Source of the DNA: Nitrososphaerota archaeon
GTDB taxonomy: Archaea > Thermoproteota > Nitrososphaeria > Nitrososphaerales > Nitrosopumilaceae
DNA: 64,000 nucleotides
Assembly (NCBI GenBank): GCA_028867595.1
Contig: JAGWGB010000001.1
Location: 73,630 to 137,629, forward strand
Direction of reading: 5' to 3'
A program made the translations under genes and the position numbers. Every line of letters begins with the position of its first letter. Position 1 is the stretch's first letter. Shown here one piece after another: positions 50,322 to 62,552 of the stretch. The notes under the pieces are model-generated. The model made no database searches and had not been told where the DNA came from. It saw nothing but the letters and a program-made list of their open reading frames with translations.

Positions 50322-53300
50322 CTATCCAACAGAATATACATCTCCACCAAATATGTTTACAGTACCTGACGTTGATGCAATGGCTGTATTGCTTGAATCA
50401 TATGCCTTGATTGTACCAACAAGAGGAAAGTCATACTTGCCTACATTTATCATGGCAGTACCAGATGTCACAGATGCACTTGCAAGCATATTTCCAGATG
50501 GACCAATTATGGATACGGTTTTTGTGCTGGAAGACAAGTTATTGATTTGTATATTTTCACTTGTTGTTGCATAATAGTTTGTAAATGTGCCATTTAGCAG
50601 CTGGCCTCCATAGTTTGTCTGCGGTTCAAGATATGCGTTAAAGGGTGTTGGCATCTGCAGGTTTAGCGATGTGCTGTTGTATACCATGGTACCGTCAAGG
50701 TACACCTTGAGGTAGTTATTGCCGTTTGTTATGATAGTACAGTCTCTTGTGAGCGGCTGGTTGGAGCTGGCGTTGACGTATAATGGAGTGTACTGCGTGC
50801 CCTCGGTAGCATTACCAATCTCAGAGGCAACTGCCCAGTACGTTGTAGAATTGCTTGTAAACGAGAAACACACTACATAGTTTACAGGGCCTGGCTCAAA
50901 CGTCTGTACATACATTCCATTCTCATAATACTGGCTTGGGTTGGACTGTACTTTGGAAAGAGGTGTTGACACTATAGAGTGGAACAGCATGCCAGCTGTA
51001 TTTTGTGTTACTGCGTAAAATCCAGTCCATGTATTTCCATCAGTCTTTGGAGATTGTACTCCAACATGCAATCCTTGCAAATCTCTGAAAAATGCATGTG
51101 ATGCGTTCTCACCTATTGCATCACCTCCATATGTCCAGTATCCTGAGTTTGCCTGTAATTGTTGTTGAGTTCTGGTCTCGTTATTTAGAGGATCAGACGC
51201 AAGAAGGCCAGATTGGGATAGTTTGATGGTAGGCAGTGATGTAGTTGCAGACGCTATGTTGGAAGGTGAGCTTGTCCCTACTGAATTTATTGCAGACACT
51301 TGATAGGTATAAGTTGTACTAGATGACAGCCCAGTATCAGAGTATGTGGTACCGGTAGTACCTGTGTTTGGTACAATGGTACTCCATGTAGAACCTCCAT
51401 TAGTTGAGCGTTGAATCACATATCCTGTTATTGCAGACCCGCCATTGTTTGATGGTGTAGTCCAGCTCAAGTTTATCTGAGATGATGATGCAGTAGTAGC
51501 AGTCAATCCTGTCGGTGCACTTGGGGCTGTAAGTGGCGCAACTGGGGTAGCACCCGCTTCGTTTGAGCTCGATGATACACCAATGGCATTTACTGCCTTG
51601 ACAGTATAATAGTACGTCTGCCCATTTGTCAGACCTGTATCAGTGTATGTAGTTGTTGTAGCACCAGTGGCAATTGGTGCTGTGTTTTCTCCGCCAGAGA
51701 TGGTACCTCGATACACATTGTATCCTGTAATTGCTGAACCACCGTTGGATGATGGCACAGACCATGATAATGATATCTGTGCATTACCTGCAGCAGCTGT
51801 TAAACCAGTTGGTGCACTAGGAGATGTATCTGTTGTAGAACCAGATGATGTATCTGACTTTATCTCAAGCGCTACATCATCCCAAAAATCATTATTATTT
51901 GCAGACCAGCTACAAGTATTTACACTAGGTAGTGAGACCATCAATGAACTTGATGCGCCAGTTATCTTGTTGACTAGGTTAGCATTCCACTCTTGTGTGC
52001 AACTTGGAGAACCAAGTATTACACCTCCATAGATTGACGGCAGGTCAAGTACCCAGTCGTTCGGATATGCCGTAGTAATTGAGATTGCTGGGCTGCTGGC
52101 TGAAGTGTTGTGTTTTACAACATGAGTGGGTATAGGTTGTGTCTGGTTCACTCCAGAGAAGGCATACGCACCAACTACAGCAGATGTAGAGCCTGACATT
52201 GTAACCACGACATTTCCTGTCCCAGTTGGATTCTTTAGGTACCAGAACTCGGCATCCTCATTGTTAAACGATGATACTACCTGTGTTAGAGGTACGCCGC
52301 CAAACGTGATAGACGCCACATTATTATTGTTCGCGCTCACTCCGACCACGAGTAAGCGGTCGATACTTGTACCTACGTTAAAGTTGGAAAGTGTCATTTG
52401 GTATGGCGATGATGATACGGTGCCCGATGTTGACTGGACATTGTTTAGTACAATGCTACCAGTTGTACTGCCACCGTTGCTAGTAGTTGCAGATGCCGCA
52501 TTTGATGGAGAGCTTGTCCCTACTGAATTTATTGCAGATACTTGATAAGTGTAAGTTGTACTAGATGACAGTCCTGTGTCAGAGTATGTTGTACCAACAT
52601 TTCCCGTATTGGATACAATTGTATTCCATGTAGAACCTCCATCAGTTGATCTATCAATTTTGTATCCAGTAATAGCTGAACCTCCATTAGAGGATGGTGC
52701 AGACCAGCTGAGATTTATCTGAGATGATGATGCCGCTGTAGCAGATAATCCGGTTGGTGCATCAGGCGATGTAGATGAGTTGGTTACAGAATATACGTCT
52801 CCTCCATATATGCTTGCGGGACTGGATGCAATTAGCACATTGCTTGAATCATAAATGTCAATATTTGCAGATAAGGGAAAGTTGTATGCGCCCACATTTA
52901 GCGTAGCAGTGCCAGATGTTACAGATGAACTTGCAAGAACATTTCCTGTCGAGTCTACAACTTCTACTGTTGCCACATTTGATGGATTATTTGTAACCTT
53001 GATGTTTTGAGAAGATGTTGCATAGTAGTTGCTAAAAGTTGCATAATGCATGGATGCCGATGACGACGTATCATCCTGAACAAATGTGACCAATGGTGTA
53101 GACATCCCGAGATTCATGGTACTGCTTGTGAAGACAGCTTTGTCTCCAATGTAGACTTTGAGATAGTTGCTTCCGTTTGTGATGATTGTACAGTCCTGGG
53201 TGTGAGGTAGAGCACTGGTTCCCGATATATACAAAGTTGTATATGTCTGACCTGCATTACTTGAATATTCCACCTCCCAATAATATCCAGTATCGTCTGC

Positions 53301-53714
53301 ATATGCCTCGCAACCTACATGCGGGATAAAATCAGATCCTTCCACATACAGGCCAGGATTGAATACACCATCTGCTACTGAATTTTGTGGGATGGTTATG
53401 GTGACATGATAAAGATTAGCGTTGGCTTGGGGCGGATGTGCATAGTAGTTGACCCATTGACCGCTTTGTGAAGACTGCACGCCAATATGAAGTCCCAGTG
53501 AATCTTCATAGTACTGATACAACGTTGCGCTTCCTCCTGCATTCAAGTTACCAGTGTTTCCAGTAGTAAAAGAATCAAAGGCAAGAAGACCAGAACCTGT
53601 TTTTGTAATGGAATATGCATATGCATTTGCATTACCCATCAATGATCCCATGAACCCAACCAGAATTATCAGTAGCAAAATATTTGATGAGGTGAGATAG
53701 ACTTTGGAATGCAT
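50322..53714 (-). CDS. large secreted protein: X'-FN3-Y-FN3-FN3-X
   Basis: Signal peptide, three FN3 repeats, two copies of domain X ('CTIITNG.NYLKVY'), one domain Y. Confidence 0.85.
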   Translation of the reverse strand: MHSKVYLTSSNILLLIILVGFMGSLMGNANAYAYSITKTGSGLLAFDSFTTGNTGNLNAGGSATLYQYYEDSLGLHIGVQSSQSGQWVNYYAHPPQANANLYHVTITIPQNSVADGVFNPGLYVEGSDFIPHVGCEAYADDTGYYWEVEYSSNAGQTYTTLYISGTSALPHTQDCTIITNGSNYLKVYIGDKAVFTSSTMNLGMSTPLVTFVQDDTSSSASMHYATFSNYYATSSQNIKVTNNPSNVATVEVVDSTGNVLASSSVTSGTATLNVGAYNFPLSANIDIYDSSNVLIASSPASIYGGDVYSVTNSSTSPDAPTGLSATAASSSQINLSWSAPSSNGGSAITGYKIDRSTDGGSTWNTIVSNTGNVGTTYSDTGLSSSTTYTYQVSAINSVGTSSPSNAASATTSNGGSTTGSIVLNNVQSTSGTVSSSPYQMTLSNFNVGTSIDRLLVVGVSANNNNVASITFGGVPLTQVVSSFNNEDAEFWYLKNPTGTGNVVVTMSGSTSAVVGAYAFSGVNQTQPIPTHVVKHNTSASSPAISITTAYPNDWVLDLPSIYGGVILGSPSCTQEWNANLVNKITGASSSLMVSLPSVNTCSWSANNNDFWDDVALEIKSDTSSGSTTDTSPSAPTGLTAAAGNAQISLSWSVPSSNGGSAITGYNVYRGTISGGENTAPIATGATTTTYTDTGLTNGQTYYYTVKAVNAIGVSSSSNEAGATPVAPLTAPSAPTGLTATTASSSQINLSWTTPSNNGGSAITGYVIQRSTNGGSTWSTIVPNTGTTGTTYSDTGLSSSTTYTYQVSAINSVGTSSPSNIASATTSLPTIKLSQSGLLASDPLNNETRTQQQLQANSGYWTYGGDAIGENASHAFFRDLQGLHVGVQSPKTDGNTWTGFYAVTQNTAGMLFHSIVSTPLSKVQSNPSQYYENGMYVQTFEPGPVNYVVCFSFTSNSTTYWAVASEIGNATEGTQYTPLYVNASSNQPLTRDCTIITNGNNYLKVYLDGTMVYNSTSLNLQMPTPFNAYLEPQTNYGGQLLNGTFTNYYATTSENIQINNLSSSTKTVSIIGPSGNMLASASVTSGTAMINVGKYDFPLVGTIKAYDSSNTAIASTSGTVNIFGGDVYSVG

Positions 53715-54607: not shown

Positions 54608-55768
54608 TTACAACCCACCAAGTCCGAGTCCAGTGCCAAGAAGACTTATGGAATATTGGTCTCCTCCAAATATGTTGACGGCGTTCGATGTAGAAGCAAG
54701 TTGGATGCCGCCTGAGCCATACACCTTGATGTATGCTGCAAGAGGCATGTCAAACTGACCTACATTAATGGTAGCCGTACCAGACGAATCAACTGGAGCA
54801 GTTGCAACTACAGTACCGCTTCCGGATGATGATGGCACGACAATGTCTACATATGAAGAACCAATCGGAGCGTTTGTTACTTTGATGTTTTCACTCGTTG
54901 TTGCATAGTAGTTTGCGTATATACCGTTTAGCAAGGCGCCTGCATAGGAAGTTTGAGGCTCAAGATATGCCTGGAATGGCGATGGCATCTGCAGATTTAG
55001 AGTGCTGTTTTCATAGACCTTGACTCCGTCGAGATATACTTTGAGATAGTTGTTGCCATTTGTTACTATGGTACAATCCCTTGTGAGAGGTTGATTCGCA
55101 CTGGAATCAACCCAGAGTAGCTGCTCGTTAGTTGCCTGGTTTACATTACCAGTTACAGATACTACTGCCCATTCAGTACCAAATGATCCTGTAAGTGAGA
55201 AGCAGGTCACATAGTTTATGGGACCGGGTTCAAATGTCTGTATATACAGCCCATTTTCATAATACTGATCCGGTATAGCACGGACAGGTGTTGTGATGGT
55301 AGCGTGAAAGACCTGAGCTGTGGTATTTTGAGTAACGGCATAAGGCCCAACCCAGCTTCCATCAGTTATTGCTTGCACTCCAATGTGCAATCCTTGTGTA
55401 TCCTTGAAGAAGTCATACGTAGCATTCTCTGCTACTGCGTCTCCTCCATAGGTCCAGTATCCTTGATTTGCCATTAGTTGTTGTTGTGTCTCTGTCTCAT
55501 TGTTTAATGGATCAGAGGCAACAAGACCTGACTTTGTTTGTGTTATGGAATACAGTTGTACCGAAGGTAATGCCAATGAAACCGTACCCAAGTTTGGAGT
55601 GCTCGAGATGATTGTAGAGGTTGTTCCAGGTATTATAGGTGGAAGAAGGTTTGGGAGTATAGGCACAGGACCAACTTGGAGAGCAGAAGCTACTGGATTC
55701 ATGATTGATGACATTAGTAGCAACGATATCACTGCGGCACTGTAAAAAACTAGCTGTGTTTTCTTCAT
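54608..55768 (-). CDS. secreted protein consisting mainly of domain X
   Basis: Signal peptide MKKTQLVFYSAAVISLLL (ATG 55768); 'SGLVASDPLNNETETQQQL...CTIVTNGNNYLKVYLDG'. Confidence 0.8.
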   Translation of the reverse strand: MKKTQLVFYSAAVISLLLMSSIMNPVASALQVGPVPILPNLLPPIIPGTTSTIISSTPNLGTVSLALPSVQLYSITQTKSGLVASDPLNNETETQQQLMANQGYWTYGGDAVAENATYDFFKDTQGLHIGVQAITDGSWVGPYAVTQNTTAQVFHATITTPVRAIPDQYYENGLYIQTFEPGPINYVTCFSLTGSFGTEWAVVSVTGNVNQATNEQLLWVDSSANQPLTRDCTIVTNGNNYLKVYLDGVKVYENSTLNLQMPSPFQAYLEPQTSYAGALLNGIYANYYATTSENIKVTNAPIGSSYVDIVVPSSSGSGTVVATAPVDSSGTATINVGQFDMPLAAYIKVYGSGGIQLASTSNAVNIFGGDQYSISLLGTGLGLGGL

Positions 55769-56170
55769 TGCCCTACAATGCGTCTTGGTGTTTATATGAA
55801 AGCACGTTAAATCTTCTAGTAAATTATTTACTTGATTTATGATAGAAAGCCGGTACATCTTTTGAAAACATGTTTGAATAATTAGAAATGTTATAGTAGT
55901 TTCTATGCAAATCAAGATAAGAACGGAATGATAGTCGTTCACATGAGTAAATGCAATTCCCAAGAAATGAAAATGGATTCACTTTACCAAAAAAAAGATG
56001 GTTATGTATTTATAAAATTTGTAAAACCAGTCAGACTAACCAAGAAAATGTTCTACAAAGAACGCTCCATCATATTCCAGATCCCGCTTTGACTTGTTAG
56101 AAAATAGGTCCCCATCAAGTGTAATTTAGCTCGGTACAAACCTGAAAATTAACACGGGAGATACCTGTAT

Positions 56171-57031
56171 CTAAGATACAAAATGAAAGAATCTTTCAAG
56201 ATCGCTTGTTTGGTTTACTCCATACCATATGAGAATAGAATTAATACTCTGGTTCTCAAAAAGATTTATTGCAAGTACATTATCCTGTACCGAACCTCTT
56301 GTTTTTATTAATGACAACTGGACAAAGATCAAAGTATTAGATGACGTTTCTTTTATTTGCCCCACAATGTTTGAAACCGAGCTTTTCATCAATGATGGAT
56401 TCTTAAGAAGAGACTGGACTTGCATATCAATCACATCCATATGTTTTGCTGCCAATCCCCAATTCCATCCGGAATGTAACAATTCTCCATATGGTGGTGT
56501 GACGATTAATTTAGCATTACTCCCTGAATCCTTGTCATATCGTATAACTGTGTTTCTTGCCTGATCAAAAAAGCCAATCGACGTGGACTCGTTAGAAGTA
56601 AATTCTGAAGAATAATTTGTACCTTTTTCATAGTCATAAACTATAAAGTCTATCCCTTTGGGAAGCTTTGGTACAGTGTTGACCATGTCATCTATTCGAT
56701 CATAAAAAATTGCAGAATCTACATGTATACGGGAATTAAACAGGGGTTTCGATTGTTCCGTTTTTTGAAGAACTGTGACTGCGGATGATGGTCTACCGCT
56801 TATGAAAAGATAATCTCCGTCTCTGAGATTTTTTTTGAAAATTTTCAGATTGTTATAGTAGTAAGGATTAGAAACGTCAAGAAAGAATGCTAGTGATAAA
56901 TGTGGTTTTGAGACTAGTGTGGAATTTGAATTAGGTGGGGTTACTGAAGATTTGAAAAGAGGCATCTGCATAGATAATGCTATTCCAAATACTAGAACTG
57001 CGACAATACCCATTATTGTTAGGAGATGCAA
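56171..57031 (-). CDS. membrane-anchored putative TIM-barrel glycoside hydrolase
   Basis: N-terminal TM; 'IDFIVYDYE' D-x-E motif and 'DVIDMQVQ' strand; last gene of the GT2 operon. Confidence 0.45.
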   Translation of the reverse strand: MHLLTIMGIVAVLVFGIALSMQMPLFKSSVTPPNSNSTLVSKPHLSLAFFLDVSNPYYYNNLKIFKKNLRDGDYLFISGRPSSAVTVLQKTEQSKPLFNSRIHVDSAIFYDRIDDMVNTVPKLPKGIDFIVYDYEKGTNYSSEFTSNESTSIGFFDQARNTVIRYDKDSGSNAKLIVTPPYGELLHSGWNWGLAAKHMDVIDMQVQSLLKNPSLMKSSVSNIVGQIKETSSNTLIFVQLSLIKTRGSVQDNVLAINLFENQSINSILIWYGVNQTSDLERFFHFVS

Positions 57032-57063
57032 AATTGTAATCTTGTAAAAAAATGTTCTAGAAG

Positions 57064-58965
57064 CTATGTCGAACCAATTCCTTCTTTGATTTTTTTCCTT
57101 AATGCCTTAGTTAGATCTTTTGTATGTTTCGCCTTCCATTTCGAAGAAACAGAAAGAAGAATCTCAAGTGCTTCAGGTGCAATGAATACAGTATAAATGA
57201 AATCATAAAAACGCGATGCGGGAATATACTTGAGGATGTACAACTTTTTGAATTTGAAAAGAAAGTAAACATGTACAAGGGTTTGTAATCCATAGGTTAG
57301 AAATTCAATTGTTAGCAACCCGACAGGAACCCCCAATAGTATTCCAAGGTTCAGAAAGGACTCATGACCAGTTATCAGTGTGGCAATTAAAAAAGGCAGA
57401 TACAAAGCTGCAGCATAATTAGAGCCTACATCCAGTATACTTAATGCATACATTATAGATATTGGTCCGTCAGCTTCTTTGATAACATCCAGATTTGTTG
57501 CACGCGCATGATAAAAAGACATGGACCATCGGACTCGCTGTTCTCGCAGGTCTTTTAGGTTTGACGGTATATCAGAAAACACAATTGCGTGTTGTTCGTA
57601 TTGATTTCTGTATCCACATCTTGCAAGTTTTATTGTTATATCTCCATCTTCGCCCAGTATATCGTCTGCCCATCCTCCCACATTTACAAGTGCATCTCTT
57701 CGAAAAACAGAAAAAGCTCCTGGTTGAACCAGTGCAGCGTCGATTAGCTCCCACTCACGCTTATAAAATGTAAGTAGTGCGTAACGTAAAACCCAGATTT
57801 TCTGTATCCAGCTTTTTTCTTCCAGTGGAAGAATTAATCCCGATACAGAACCAACGTCAGGATCTTTAAAATGGCACATGACTCTAGTGATTGCATGTTT
57901 ATCTATTGCAGAATCAGTATCTATTCTAAATACGATATCGCCTGAAATTCTGTCAAGCCCATATTGTAAGGCATGCCCCTTTCCTGAATTTGGAATGTTG
58001 TATACTTTACCACTAGCATGCTTTAGGTTGAGTACTGCCTCTGATGCTATTTTTCTAGTGTCATCAGTTGAACCGTCATTAACTACAACAATCTCGGTAT
58101 TGCCTAGATAGTTTGCCGCTGCCTTATCTATACTTTCAATACATCGCCTAATGTGTTTTTCTTCATTATATGCAGGTAAAAGAAACGATAATGGTGTGTC
58201 ATCATAGTTTTGTCGTACAACAGTGATTTGATTGCTTTTTGCCCATTTAGGCACCTTTATCTCATAAATGAAATAAGCCAAGTAATACCTCAATAGTAAT
58301 ATCGACGACAGGTTAATTGCCAGGTACGCTGTTACTGGCGAATTACTTTGTAAATTCAAAATGTTTGTTACAAGATAAACCAATATGACAGCACCAGACA
58401 ATAAAACGCCTACAATAACATACTCGTCGAAGTGGCTGCGTTTGATTTTTGTACCAAGTTTTGCTCGTGTGGGTAGATTTATCGTTAAAAATAAAGACGC
58501 TTCGATTAGCAGACTACCTGCTATACCTGTACAGACAATGCTTGCTTGCAAAACTGCCACACTAGATGTAAAACCTGTTGCCATCATTGTAACAATGACT
58601 AAAAATTGAATTAGAACAAGCCCAATCATGCATACTGGCCAGAACAGCAATACCTTCATCCGTGTTTTTATAGCTGCCCTAGTGGAAACAGCAAGCGAAG
58701 GAAAAAAAATTAAAAAAAGTATCTGGGTTTGCATCGGTATTGAAAACTGTATAGGAGAATAGATATTTCCAACAAAGAGAATACCACCATCCAAATAAGA
58801 TGGTACATGAAAAAAATCAAATAATCCTAGCAAGATTTGATTTTCTATCGTTTGGAAGAATTGATTGTTCAGTAGGACATATGCAAAAAAAAATGCAGAT
58901 ATCATGAAACGTACTGGAAAATAAAATACTAGTTTTTTGATCTCGTGTATGTATCCTGTTGTCAT
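57064..58965 (-). CDS. processive GT2 polysaccharide synthase (PgaC/IcaA/cellulose-synthase-like) with an extra N-terminal membrane domain
   Basis: 'LPAYNEE', 'VNDGSTD', 'IDTD', 'GAFS.FR', 'GED' and 'QRVRW' motifs; about 6 N-terminal and several C-terminal TM helices. Confidence 0.9.
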   Translation of the reverse strand: MTTGYIHEIKKLVFYFPVRFMISAFFFAYVLLNNQFFQTIENQILLGLFDFFHVPSYLDGGILFVGNIYSPIQFSIPMQTQILFLIFFPSLAVSTRAAIKTRMKVLLFWPVCMIGLVLIQFLVIVTMMATGFTSSVAVLQASIVCTGIAGSLLIEASLFLTINLPTRAKLGTKIKRSHFDEYVIVGVLLSGAVILVYLVTNILNLQSNSPVTAYLAINLSSILLLRYYLAYFIYEIKVPKWAKSNQITVVRQNYDDTPLSFLLPAYNEEKHIRRCIESIDKAAANYLGNTEIVVVNDGSTDDTRKIASEAVLNLKHASGKVYNIPNSGKGHALQYGLDRISGDIVFRIDTDSAIDKHAITRVMCHFKDPDVGSVSGLILPLEEKSWIQKIWVLRYALLTFYKREWELIDAALVQPGAFSVFRRDALVNVGGWADDILGEDGDITIKLARCGYRNQYEQHAIVFSDIPSNLKDLREQRVRWSMSFYHARATNLDVIKEADGPISIMYALSILDVGSNYAAALYLPFLIATLITGHESFLNLGILLGVPVGLLTIEFLTYGLQTLVHVYFLFKFKKLYILKYIPASRFYDFIYTVFIAPEALEILLSVSSKWKAKHTKDLTKALRKKIKEGIGST

Positions 58966-61022
58966 CGTTTTCCGTCGCCATCATCAATGTTTACATGAGA
59001 TTGCGATACAATTTTTGCTCTGTCTCTTCTTTCGTTAATTTTTTCAGCACTAATGTCTTCGAAGATTTTAATTTCTTCATGTTTGAAAACATTATCATTT
59101 TGTGGCATATCCTGAAGCGATGTCATCTCAATCATTTCAAGCCTTTTTCTTCGTTTTTTGATGAAAAGTCCTATTCCTATTCCAAGAAATATCACAACAA
59201 TAACGTACGTTATTGGGATTCCGTTGTAGTACATCAGATAATATGGACCATAATCAACGTGATATGGAACCATCACTGTTTGTACAAAAGCATTTGATGT
59301 ACTTGTAGAATTTTGCGACCAGTTCATCTGGATTGTGGCGGATTGATCACCTGCCACGAATTGAGGCGCCATATCCACCAGAAAGGTCGTTACAAAGGTT
59401 TGCCCAGGCAATATTGTTCCAATATTTTCCATGTTTCCAACACTTGTGATCGTATCACTCTTTACCCCGGGAACAGAATTTCCTGATAGAAGTGTAGTAG
59501 TTATCGTTTGTGCGGCAATGGCACCTACATTCTTTAGTGTGATCCTGAACGGAACATTTGTGGCTCCAGGGTATAACTGCGAATCATCCTCTGAGACCAG
59601 TTGAAATTCTGCTTTCGGGGATACAATATAGGCAACGTTTAGTGTTGTTTGTTTCCCTCCACTTGTAATTGCCAGCGAGAGAGGATAGTTTCCTGCATGT
59701 GCCATGTTATCCACATTGACAAAAAATGATGCAGTGACTGTCTGAAACGTGCTCACCCTACCAAAGTAGGCAGATGTTGCATTTCCCCACGCAGGAGCAA
59801 GACCCGAAGGAAGATGCAGCGTTGCATATACATCATCTGCGGTAAGTCCATAATTGAATATCTGTACATCTATTTTGTCACTAGTATCACCCGGATATGA
59901 AAGCGAAGGTGCAACTGTGACATTTTCAATCTTGAATACTGGTTGGTTTCCCAGAGGAAGTTCGGTTTGGTATGTCTCGTTAAACTCGTCTTCGTTAGAA
60001 TCATACTTTACTGCTACAGGGATCTGAAGTGAAAGATTATTGTTTAATGTGTAAATTCTAAGAGGAATTGTTTTCGTGACGTGGACCCCAAGATCTCCAA
60101 CCCAGATAGGTGTGTTTGTCGATACATATCCTCCACCTGATGCTGAAACTATTTGCAAATTGTGAATGGGTTGAACACCACTATTTGTAATGTCAAAAAG
60201 TATTGGAGCCACGGAATTTGGCTGGAGTGTTGTTGGACGTGCGGTTATGGACAGTAGTCCTCCAGTGGGCTGTAAAGTACTTCCAACATTAATTCCACCC
60301 GTGATAGAGCTGGGGCCGGCGTTAGATGAGGTGAAATTGAAACGGACTACATATGCACCAGCGTCTTCGGCTCTTAGTTTCCAGTTGAACTCTAGTTTTT
60401 GGTCAGGTCCTACCATGCTGTTGTATCTAGTAACATTGTCTAACAGCTGTAAACCTGCAGGTACAAAGATCTGCGCAATTATGTTATTATCTGCTACACT
60501 TGCAGCGTTTTTCAACTCAAGTCCTACAGTAAAGTTGTCATTTGGAAATATGCTTCCCGGTATGTTCAGGCCAGTCACCACAAGACTGTGTGGAGTACCT
60601 ACGTTTACCGTGACCGAAAATGTTTCATTATCATATGGAAAGTTGGAATGTGCAGTTATGACCAATGGGTACGAACCGCTGCTCCCTGCCATTACTATCC
60701 ACGTCGCACGCATGGTGTTTCCTTCATTTGTAAAGGCAAGTTTGGCAATTACTGGGCTCATGACGCTTATGCCATCCGGAGCAGAGAGCTGTACAATCAA
60801 TGCCTCCCAGTTTACGCTCTGCGACTGGATATCGGCAGTTATCTTAAATGGCTTGTCTGGAAGTGGGTTTGGGTCAACGTATACATTTGTGAAAAGAAGG
60901 CTTGGTTGTCCCTGTATCTGAAACATTGGGGTGCTTGGATATATCCCGTACGAGGAATTTTGTACAAACATGGTCAGAACTACCAATAAGACAAATACCA
61001 ACCAGAGACGCATTATTTGCAT
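58962..61022 (-). CDS. COG1361-like S-layer/CARDB-repeat surface protein with a C-terminal TM anchor
   Basis: Signal peptide; repeated 'F.V.L.L.N.G...A..I...L..P.G' Ig repeats; TM helix followed by KKRRKR. Confidence 0.75.
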   Translation of the reverse strand: MQIMRLWLVFVLLVVLTMFVQNSSYGIYPSTPMFQIQGQPSLLFTNVYVDPNPLPDKPFKITADIQSQSVNWEALIVQLSAPDGISVMSPVIAKLAFTNEGNTMRATWIVMAGSSGSYPLVITAHSNFPYDNETFSVTVNVGTPHSLVVTGLNIPGSIFPNDNFTVGLELKNAASVADNNIIAQIFVPAGLQLLDNVTRYNSMVGPDQKLEFNWKLRAEDAGAYVVRFNFTSSNAGPSSITGGINVGSTLQPTGGLLSITARPTTLQPNSVAPILFDITNSGVQPIHNLQIVSASGGGYVSTNTPIWVGDLGVHVTKTIPLRIYTLNNNLSLQIPVAVKYDSNEDEFNETYQTELPLGNQPVFKIENVTVAPSLSYPGDTSDKIDVQIFNYGLTADDVYATLHLPSGLAPAWGNATSAYFGRVSTFQTVTASFFVNVDNMAHAGNYPLSLAITSGGKQTTLNVAYIVSPKAEFQLVSEDDSQLYPGATNVPFRITLKNVGAIAAQTITTTLLSGNSVPGVKSDTITSVGNMENIGTILPGQTFVTTFLVDMAPQFVAGDQSATIQMNWSQNSTSTSNAFVQTVMVPYHVDYGPYYLMYYNGIPITYVIVVIFLGIGIGLFIKKRRKRLEMIEMTSLQDMPQNDNVFKHEEIKIFEDISAEKINERRDRAKIVSQSHVNIDDGDGKR

Positions 61023-61025
61023 AAC

Positions 61026-62228
61026 CTAGTTTTTGCGCGGTATTGTTGGATTTACAACACTTTGTTTTATTCCATCATTCCATTTTACAACTTGTACTAT
61101 AGCGTCTTTCTTTGCAAGTATTCGGTCTTTATATTGTACCAAGTCATCCAGCATCATGCTTATTTGATCATCAATGTGTCTTGTTGCCTTAAACCCGAGT
61201 TGTTTTAGTTTTTCATGATCTGCTTTGTAATAATGTTCCTCTTTTTCGACTCTGGGATTTTCTATACTTTCGATCTCCAGATCCAATCCCTTTTTGTTTC
61301 CTACATTCTTTACATGTTCGGCAAGTTCCCGTACGTTGTATTGTTCATCAAATTGGTTTACTACTCGGTATTCTCCCACCTGGGGTGGATTGTTGATGAG
61401 TATCGACAGGCATTGAATGGAATCTTCTAGAGCAAGAAAACCACGAGTCTGTCTTCCTTTTCCGTATACTGTAAGTGGATGATCTATGACAGCTTGTGCA
61501 CAGAATCGATTTATCACAGTGCCAAAAACTTCATCAAAGTCAAACCTAGTATGCAAGGCATCATGGCTTATTTCATCTGTCCTTGTTCCATAAACTATAC
61601 CCTGCATGATATCCGTGGATGTCAGATTCCACAGTTTACACGCAAACATGATATTATTACTATCATGAACCTTGGTCCAATGATACCAGCTGCCAGCCAT
61701 TTTTGGATATGGTATTAGAGCCTTCTTGCCTCTAAATTCTATTTCCATAAATCCTTCAGTTATATCAATATCATTTCCATAGCCATACTCTCCCATCGTT
61801 CCTAATTTTACTAGGTGTGCTTTTGGAGCATGTTTTCTCATGGCATAGACTACATTTAGTGTACCAGTAACGTTATTGTTTTGAGTATAAAGACAATGCT
61901 GCTGATCAATCATGCTGTATGGTGCAGATGGTTGTTCTGCAAGATGGACGATAGCATCCGGTTTAAATTTTTTAATTATATCATTTGTAAATTGTGAGTC
62001 TACCAAATTTCCTTCGTAAAAGCTAATTTTGTCCCCATATTTTTTTCTCAAAATTTCTAGTCTTTTCGACATTGGTAGTATAGGCATGGCAGACCAAGAA
62101 CCAACTTCTTCCACACATTTCCTACGAGAATAGTTATCAATGCCACAAACTTGATTTCCAAAATTTAACTGGCTTAGTGCCAGAGACCAACCAATATATC
62201 CATCCATACCTAAAATGAGAATCTTCAT
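61026..62228 (-). CDS. agl3: UDP-sulfoquinovose synthase (Agl3/SqdB/SQD1)
   Basis: 'GMDGYIGW', 'DNYSRR', 'HLAEQPSAPYSM', 'KLGTMGEYG', 'YHWTKVHDS', 'QGIVYG', 'FGTVINRFC'; start placed at ATG 62228. Confidence 0.92.
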   Translation of the reverse strand: MKILILGMDGYIGWSLALSQLNFGNQVCGIDNYSRRKCVEEVGSWSAMPILPMSKRLEILRKKYGDKISFYEGNLVDSQFTNDIIKKFKPDAIVHLAEQPSAPYSMIDQQHCLYTQNNNVTGTLNVVYAMRKHAPKAHLVKLGTMGEYGYGNDIDITEGFMEIEFRGKKALIPYPKMAGSWYHWTKVHDSNNIMFACKLWNLTSTDIMQGIVYGTRTDEISHDALHTRFDFDEVFGTVINRFCAQAVIDHPLTVYGKGRQTRGFLALEDSIQCLSILINNPPQVGEYRVVNQFDEQYNVRELAEHVKNVGNKKGLDLEIESIENPRVEKEEHYYKADHEKLKQLGFKATRHIDDQISMMLDDLVQYKDRILAKKDAIVQVVKWNDGIKQSVVNPTIPRKN

Positions 62229-62552
62229 TTCAATTTCTTGCTCCAAAACAAATAATGGTTTGAATGAATATCTGCTTTAACCTATTGTATTCATATGTAC
62301 CCATTTTCATTATTTTTTCTCAATTAAACTATATAGCAGATAACTAAGTTTTTTACAACATACAGTTATGTTAAATTATTCTGTATTCAATTAATGTTGT
62401 CTTCACAATATTCACACATAATTCCAATCTACTAACAGAGAAAATGTTATCGGTTTTTATAACATCCATCGTTCTTTAAGTAATAAACTTAAAAATGTGA
62501 CAGACAAGTTTGAGTTAGAAATAGTTCAGTTAAGATTTAAGACCAAAAGATC

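Follow-up and report, generated by a model that had tools for sequence, protein, structure and literature searches.

The synthase-dependent systems for poly-N-acetylglucosamine (PNAG; PgaABCD/IcaADBC), cellulose (BcsA-BcsB-BcsZ) and hyaluronan (class I hyaluronan synthases, HAS) are built around one membrane glycosyltransferase of family 2 (GT2), which carries the D, DxD, (G/T)ED and QxxRW motifs and a transmembrane domain of its own, and they operate without a flippase or a Wzy polymerase. In the literature searched, sulfoquinovose is reported as a constituent of sulfolipids and, in thermoacidophilic archaea, of N-glycans; a thaumarchaeal genomics paper mentions UDP-sulfoquinovose synthase only as a sulfolipid gene, and a study of Sulfolobus exopolysaccharide mentions the sugar only as a part of the N-glycan. 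The same searches returned no report of sulfoquinovose in Nitrosotalea, of a sulfoquinovose polysaccharide or of a comparable archaeal sulfoquinovose pathway. Here we analyze a four-gene cassette in a 64,000-nt stretch of contig JAGWGB010000001.1 (hereafter the window, meaning this whole stretch) from a Nitrososphaerota archaeon, the source assembly being a 1.69-Mb metagenome-assembled genome that is 96.5% complete. Four co-directional minus-strand open reading frames (ORFs) fill positions 62228..56171 and encode a UDP-sulfoquinovose synthase of the SqdB/Agl3 type, a NEW3/CARDB-type surface protein, a synthase-type membrane GT2 and a membrane-anchored barrel protein that we call P4 (table 1). 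We tentatively propose that they constitute one accessory transcription unit in which a synthase-dependent pathway builds an extracellular glycan containing sulfoquinovose; the surface protein would be its partner outside the cell, and P4 would trim the product.

The comparison with PNAG, cellulose and hyaluronan synthesis reveals several shared elements. The cassette also relies on a single membrane GT2 with the full set of motifs and its own transmembrane domain, and contains neither flippase nor Wzy polymerase. Its surface protein has the topology of BcsB, extracytoplasmic with a single C-terminal anchor, and, in likeness to the C-terminal glycoside hydrolase family 153 (GH153) domain of PgaB or to BcsZ, an extracytoplasmic TIM-barrel protein of predicted activity is encoded within the operon. 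Nevertheless, the GT2 belongs to none of these families by curated cut-offs and has an extra membrane domain of about 240 residues, the partner is an Ig-like NEW3/CARDB protein and not BcsB, and the barrel falls in no known GH family. The cassette further differs in lacking a cyclic di-GMP module, in having a sulfoquinovose-nucleotide synthase in the operon and in its archaeal host. The agl1-agl4 cluster of Sulfolobus acidocaldarius, also an archaeal acidophile, likewise combines a UDP-sulfoquinovose synthase gene with a membrane glycosyltransferase (here, sqdB lies 2 kb from the GT2 gene). However, that cluster serves AglB-dependent N-glycosylation and has genes for a glucokinase and a pyrophosphorylase in addition, whereas in the cassette the synthase-type GT2 is accompanied by a surface protein and a TIM barrel; moreover, the cassette SqdB is nearer to the bacterial/plant type than to Agl3, with a score that passes an NCBIfam cut-off missed by Agl3. 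PcManGT of Pyrobaculum calidifontis (PDB 6yv7) is an archaeal membrane GT2 too and likewise has a cellulose-synthase-like core, but it is an enzyme of about 355 aa with few helices; the membrane domain of the cassette GT2 adds about 280 residues. Finally, the sulfolipid pathways SqdB-SqdX (GT4) and SqdB-SqdD (GT8) start with the same enzyme, but the cassette contains no GT4 or GT8 sulfolipid synthase and its acceptor enzyme is a polytopic GT2.

The distribution of these genes indicates that they belong together. Among 63 Nitrosotalea species genomes, sqdB is found in 8 and an orthologous GT2 (46-66% identity) in exactly those 8, that is, 8/8 against 0/55, and in every case sqdB, surface protein, GT2 and P4 are contiguous and either overlap or lie a few bases apart. 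The four-gene array, its order and its tight junctions recur in nine distinct cassettes in spite of the GT2 divergence, which indicates an arrangement beyond chance; metagenomic contigs supply further copies. In Nitrososphaeraceae, where the GT2 is 39% identical, the link with sqdB survives rearrangement: one genome each shows the order GT2, surface protein, sqdB; the order sqdB, 206-aa gene, PIG-L, GT2; or sqdB and GT2 separated by 10 kb. The survey of agl3 neighborhoods with GT2, which the first-pass annotation had put forward as a check, came out in favor of a tie between the two genes. Additional clues come from sister GT2 lineages, in which the place of sqdB is taken by a short-chain dehydrogenase/reductase (SDR) plus DegT, by DegT plus WbqC, by a radical-SAM/SPASM enzyme, or by an ADP-forming acyl-CoA synthetase plus a phosphodiesterase. 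Several of these lineages still have the CARDB/NEW3 partner, and relatives of the surface protein adjoin relatives of the GT2 even where the sugar genes differ. In the GT2 tree the sqdB-less variants nest within sqdB-linked clades, and as a negative control sqdB was seen at none of 78 more distant GT2 loci, which were drawn from a contig pattern scan with the GT2 alignment that was swamped by generic GT2s and brought up two true relatives only. This pattern of swapped genes is the best available, though indirect, evidence that the adjacent sugar gene may feed the GT2.

Some further variation among these loci was recorded. A paralogous GT2 plus P4 pair with neither sqdB nor surface protein (L118 in genome G262; L119/L096 in G286) is confined to genomes in which the full cassette is present too. 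Another GT2 sublineage (L120 in G253; L098) has an ADP-forming acyl-CoA synthetase-like protein of ~720 aa and PF01663 phosphodiesterases on its flanks, and these suggest an acylated or phospho-modified product. Identities between cassette orthologs range over 75-77% for SqdB, 58-74% for the surface protein, 46-66% for the GT2 and 41-58% for P4, an unequal divergence that would be consistent with glycan structure being under diversifying pressure.

SqdB scores 619 bits against the NCBIfam equivalog NF041015 (cut-off 575) over model positions 1-384, the full length, and matches Arabidopsis SQD1 (1qrr) with an E value of 4.8e-121. The SDR Thr and Tyr-x3-Lys are kept, the segments VHLAEQ, GTMGEYG and YHWTK align with SQD1, and the residues His95, Met145, Glu147 and Tyr148, essential in Agl3, are conserved. 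The gene is present as a single copy in the genome. The name UDP-sulfoquinovose synthase is therefore a matter of strong homology with one conserved and unexplained departure, an Arg-to-Pro change considered below, and the enzyme most likely makes a sulfoquinovose nucleotide, as far as its sequence allows a judgment.

The GT2 matches Pfam GT2 families, and its best curated family is NCBIfam PgaC_IcaA (residues 230-592, comprising the GT domain and the C-terminal helices). Its scores lie below the equivalog cut-offs of PgaC/IcaA (136.6 vs. 422.3 bits), NodC (86.7 vs. 550) and CelA (37 vs. 699). The motifs NDGSTD, DTD, GED and QRVRW show no variation, either in the family alignment or among 24 context-labeled relatives. 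An AlphaFold (AF2) model, with a predicted local distance difference test (pLDDT) of 86.6 and a predicted template modeling score of 0.87, was submitted to Foldseek, which placed the class I hyaluronan synthases XlHAS1 and CvHAS on top (target-normalized template modeling [TM] scores of 0.57-0.63 over 460-530 columns, E about 1e-13, with the transmembrane part included), followed by BcsA/cellulose and chitin synthases. In the sequence-profile search against PDB, BcsA and CvHAS come second to PcManGT, and the CvHAS match covers residues 325-570, reaching into the membrane helices. The protein has about ten or more such helices. Its polytopic N-terminal domain is conserved throughout the family (P17, R19, R102, E155, P165 and R176 in the alignment) and gave no Pfam or NCBIfam match even at E 10. 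A CTGIAGS segment prompted us to consider an exosortase/archaeosortase-like domain here, which was rejected as the Cys is not conserved and no family matched at E 10. Full-length relatives of the GT2 number more than 740, and for nearly all of them names are absent or generic.

The surface protein carries a signal peptide. Its ectodomain is acidic (pI 4.6) and contains 11 N-X-S/T sequons, and hydropathy places a transmembrane helix at residues 602-620, followed by KKRRKR and a cytoplasmic tail of 66 residues. Being extracytoplasmic with one C-terminal transmembrane anchor, and encoded next to the synthase gene with an ATGA overlap, it shows the features of a BcsB-type partner. Its repeats match the Ig-like Pfam family PF10633 (NEW3/NPCBM_assoc), which is the sole match: no NCBIfam or PDB match and no membership in the BcsB family were found. 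The family comprises 58 proteins, thaumarchaeal throughout and none of them named.

The P4 model (AF2, pLDDT 86.6) consists of eight strand-helix units, forming a (beta/alpha)8 barrel. Invariant residues include D127-Y-E129 right after strand 4, as well as E177, D196, R239, W183, W185 and Y264. It is an extracytoplasmic barrel with conserved acidic residues and an N-terminal anchor, as expected of an exopolysaccharide hydrolase. No Pfam, NCBIfam or PDB profile matches P4, and neither sequence nor close structure places it in a known GH family. A Foldseek search, also envisaged in the initial annotation, gave a mixed outcome: the best matches are indeed glycan-cleaving barrels (Cwp19, the PgaB C-terminal GH153 domain and GH18 chitinases), ahead of metabolic barrels (TM 0.41-0.50), but their query-normalized TM scores reach only 0.54-0.56. 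We also considered P4 as a diverged GH135/Spherulin-4 protein, like four paralogs in the window, and rejected this, since the hhalign probability was 0.2% and the profile retrieved noise from the PDB sequences. The family is small, with 70 representatives among 1.84 billion proteins, and some of its members are fused to fn3 repeats, CHB_HEX_C (the chitobiase C-terminal domain), Spherulin4/GH135, CBM9, or CBM3 plus dockerin; these fusions point to a secreted carbohydrate-active enzyme. Together with the modeled fold, they make hydrolase activity a plausible prediction. One Nitrosotalea genome (G307; contigs C8, C18, C19, C29 and C55) has five P4-family genes, several in frames of 480-940 aa, and neither sqdB nor the GT2; thus, the barrel family works outside the cassette too.

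One sugar gene with one glycosyltransferase, and neither flippase nor polymerase, fits a synthase route. In the scheme that we envisage, SqdB, as a member of its family, would supply the UDP-sulfoquinovose donor, which the GT2 would presumably use either as its sole donor or, in the manner of hyaluronan synthase, in alternation with a housekeeping UDP-sugar. If processive, as its fold and motifs suggest, the GT2 would elongate the chain and export it through its own transmembrane domain. The surface protein, translationally coupled and held in the membrane, might act outside the cell as a BcsB-like guide or tether, or else as acceptor, a role consistent with its topology and conserved pairing. 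Fold, location and fusions are those of a protein that could trim or release the polymer, and the anchored P4 barrel may do so in the manner of BcsZ, the PgaB C-terminal domain, PelA and Sph3. The first-pass annotation had likened the operon to a synthase-plus-hydrolase layout, and the synthase-type GT2 with a co-encoded extracytoplasmic barrel supports that likeness; the QxxRW motif that it named is present as QRVRW, and its DxE as D127-x-E129 after strand 4 of a confident barrel model. Its overall interpretation, a sulfonated anionic polysaccharide that complements a cationic Pel-like polymer, is partly supported. A true sulfoquinovose polysaccharide, whether a homopolymer or a hyaluronan-like copolymer with sulfoquinovose replacing glucuronate, exported by a new HAS/PgaC-like branch with an Ig-like partner, we consider improbable.

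Various observations weigh against the synthase-dependent route, and three groups of them lend themselves to other explanations. The first concerns the donor. SqdB reads EQPSAP (window 61930-61920) where SQD1 and Agl3 read EQRSAP, with Pro in the position of Arg101, and the same Pro is found in all 24 Nitrososphaeria SqdBs examined (this protein and 23 others). The roles of the Agl3 residues were established with mutants, and R101A is inactive (PMC4388408). An enzyme altered in this position might release some other 6-modified glucose nucleotide, such as the 5,6-ene or the 4-keto-6-deoxy intermediate, for use by the GT2, and sister cassettes do supply sugars of the 6-deoxy type through dehydratase and aminotransferase genes. 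Yet the full-length match of SqdB exceeds the curated equivalog cut-off, all other residues tested in Agl3 are conserved, and the fixation of Pro across deeply diverged lineages suggests a compensated, functional enzyme, so a different nucleotide product seems very unlikely to us.

The second group concerns the GT2 reaction. By sequence profile, the best PDB match, and the best solved relative, is PcManGT (E 2e-18, residues 221-478, 69 bits), an archaeal membrane GT2 whose assigned role is in N-glycan synthesis. In addition, QxxRW and the cellulose-synthase-like fold are also found in non-processive enzymes, and so are no proof of processivity. In Sulfolobus, agl3 sits with agl1, whose product is a membrane glycosyltransferase that adds sulfoquinovose to the N-glycan (PMC4388408). 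By the same logic, a non-processive GT2 might add one sulfoquinovose to a dolichol-linked oligosaccharide or a membrane lipid, to be passed on by the host flippase and AglB to surface proteins, with the sequon-rich cassette protein as main carrier and the cassette as a strain-variable decoration of the surface glycan. The 11 sequons of that protein would agree with this, as would the DPMS/GtrA-type GT2s or Wzx flippase that adjoin sqdB in other Nitrososphaeria, the recurrence near relatives of PIG-L deacetylases, typical of lipid-linked GlcNAc chemistry, and the strain variation of the whole cassette, which is typical of surface glycans. However, the membrane part of the GT2 is large, its score against PgaC (137 bits) exceeds that against PcManGT, and the hyaluronan synthase match spans the transmembrane region. 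Also, no other N-glycosylation gene lies within or beside the unit, and an extracytoplasmic P4 would be left without a role, though it accompanies the GT2 even where sqdB is missing. We regard such a decoration pathway as a serious alternative, though a rather unlikely one.

The third group bears on whether the two enzymes share a substrate. No column of the alignment cleanly splits sqdB-linked from other GT2s, R339, D434, R585 and W610 being weak leads to donor specificity; GT2 plus P4 pairs without an adjacent sqdB exist; and the co-occurrence statistics were computed without phylogenetic correction. It is conceivable that the GT2 product is a common polymer of GlcNAc or glucose, similar to PNAG, chitin or cellulose and trimmed by P4, while SqdB serves another acceptor and is merely co-inherited. 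This would accord with the missing donor signature and the sqdB-less pairs, with PgaC and NodC as the best curated matches of the GT2, and with the PIG-L and Polysacc_deac_1 deacetylases near several relatives. We find it very doubtful, given the perfect co-occurrence in Nitrosotalea, the contiguity and translational coupling of the genes and the sqdB-GT2 linkage retained in rearranged Nitrososphaeraceae loci; furthermore, the unit contains no second glycosyltransferase to consume UDP-sulfoquinovose, and the genome has one sqdB. Three more points count against the synthase-dependent reading: the structural matches of P4 are weak (TM about 0.55) and little above those of generic TIM barrels, P4 relatives are present in genomes with neither sqdB nor the GT2, and the locus was detected in no RNA run searched, the lone run listed as RNA being of uncertain kind with thin contig coverage.

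At the level of the locus itself, inspection of the ORFs bore out the gene order, coordinates, 3-nt gap, ATGA overlap and 32-nt gap of the first-pass annotation, and its four gene identities held, through NF041015 for sqdB, NEW3/NPCBM_assoc for the surface protein, QRVRW for the GT2 and the D-x-E barrel model for P4. The sqdB stop and the surface-protein start read TAG-GTT-ATG, with a gap of 3 nt, and the surface protein and GT2 genes overlap by ATGA. From the GT2 to P4 the spacer is 32 nt to a TTG and 50 nt to an ATG. The latter start (57013) gives the 280-aa form present in the database; the TTG is more plausible, since the 19-residue N-terminal anchor helix is then complete and aligns with homologs. 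The spacer contains one copy of a 15-nt operator-like pattern for which the window contains 16 matches where 1.26 would be expected, and this copy before P4 hints at a regulated start of its own. A scan for bacterial-type promoters and terminators found no enrichment over shuffles, the expected result for an archaeon.

Table 1. Coordinates of the cassette genes, their domains and associated sequence features in the window.
Feature	Position	Strand	Remarks
sqdB/agl3-type UDP-sulfoquinovose synthase (strong homology)	61026..62228	-	400 aa from ATG; TTG at 62246 would give 406 aa
NEW3/CARDB-type surface protein	58962..61022	-	686 aa
Synthase-type membrane GT2	57064..58965	-	633 aa
N-terminal ~245-residue polytopic domain of GT2	58231..58965	-	6-7 helices and beta-hairpin region (model)
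GT-A catalytic domain of GT2	57496..58200	-	NDGSTD, DTD 349-351, GED 438-440, QRVRW 476-480
P4, membrane-anchored extracytoplasmic (beta/alpha)8 barrel, putative glycan hydrolase	56171..57031	-	286 aa from TTG
TAGAACATTTTTTTA, candidate operator in GT2-P4 spacer	57045..57059	-	2 mismatches to the 15-nt pattern TAGAAC-AAT-NTTCTA
Presumed sqdB promoter (upstream non-coding region)	62229..62513	-	285 nt; within the segment absent from the cassette-less allele
Presence/absence unit (four genes and upstream region)	56096..62513	.	6418 bp; contig in run X25 joins 56095 to 62514
GTTAGAAA, left copy of 8-bp direct repeat at indel boundary	56096..56103	+	
GTTAGAAA, right copy of 8-bp direct repeat	62514..62521	+	

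At least 20 metagenome runs, from soil, rhizosphere and mine drainage, contain the cassette in near-identical form. In a cassette-less allele from run X25, the contig joint falls exactly between the two copies of GTTAGAAA, and an equivalent joint, about 56103 to about 62546, is found on contigs in DNA runs X10 and X14 from other studies, making three studies in all. What is missing corresponds exactly to the four genes and the 285 nt upstream of sqdB, so that close strains differ by the whole unit, which is acquired or lost in one piece. No mobility gene, integrase or transposase is found inside the unit. Its G+C content (0.37-0.41) is the same as in the rest of the window and thus gives no sign of recent foreign origin.

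Within Nitrosotalea, a pelF-like gene is present in 24 of the 63 genomes, namely in 8/8 with the cassette and 16/55 without it (hypergeometric chance about 2e-4, without phylogenetic correction), a distribution compatible with the two complementary polymers that the first-pass annotation had in mind. The cassette and a Pel-like cluster lie on one contig in the window, where they are 12 kb apart, and in one relative. The neighbors of the cassette are an fn3 protein, surface proteins of no recognized kind and a winged helix-turn-helix regulator; a check of the genes beside and within the unit found no UDP-glucose supply gene. An ORF of 451 aa adjoining the cassette (54608-55963) and the 1130-aa fn3 protein (50322-53714) have a domain of ~320 residues in common, the former being 58% identical to the C-terminal and 37% to the N-terminal copy of the latter. 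This domain has no Pfam match, and both genes are kept beside the cassette in relatives.

In all, sqdB is found in 26 of 251 genomes sampled across the order. Outside these cassettes its neighbors in Nitrososphaeria are DPMS/GtrA-type GT2s at some loci, a Wzx flippase together with DegT at others, and elsewhere a chitin-synthase-like GT2 next to a polysaccharide deacetylase. The last of these is a recurrent trio in Nitrososphaeraceae (L103-L105; genomes G143, G233 and G094), composed of sqdB, a 246-aa Polysacc_deac_1 deacetylase and a 467-aa GT2, and it resembles the Ica-like layout of synthase and deacetylase with a sulfo-sugar gene added. The variety of contexts makes more than one thaumarchaeal use of sulfoquinovose probable, including a second synthase-like arrangement.

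The cassette contributes three uncharacterized protein families, the GT2 N-terminal domain, the NEW3 partner and the P4 barrel. The conserved Arg-to-Pro change in thaumarchaeal SqdBs calls for a biochemical check before they are annotated by homology, and the presence/absence polymorphism offers natural material for comparative experiments. As a compact and portable unit that couples sulfoquinovose synthesis to a synthase-type GT2, the cassette is a testable candidate for a sulfonated surface polymer in acid-soil ammonia oxidizers, organisms of global relevance whose cell surface is almost unstudied. If a sulfoquinovose polymer is indeed made, its presence strain by strain would reflect selection by viruses or niche, and its sulfonate, charged at any soil pH, would give these acidophilic ammonia oxidizers a permanently anionic coat, which could concentrate ammonium or pair with a cationic Pel/GAG-like polymer.

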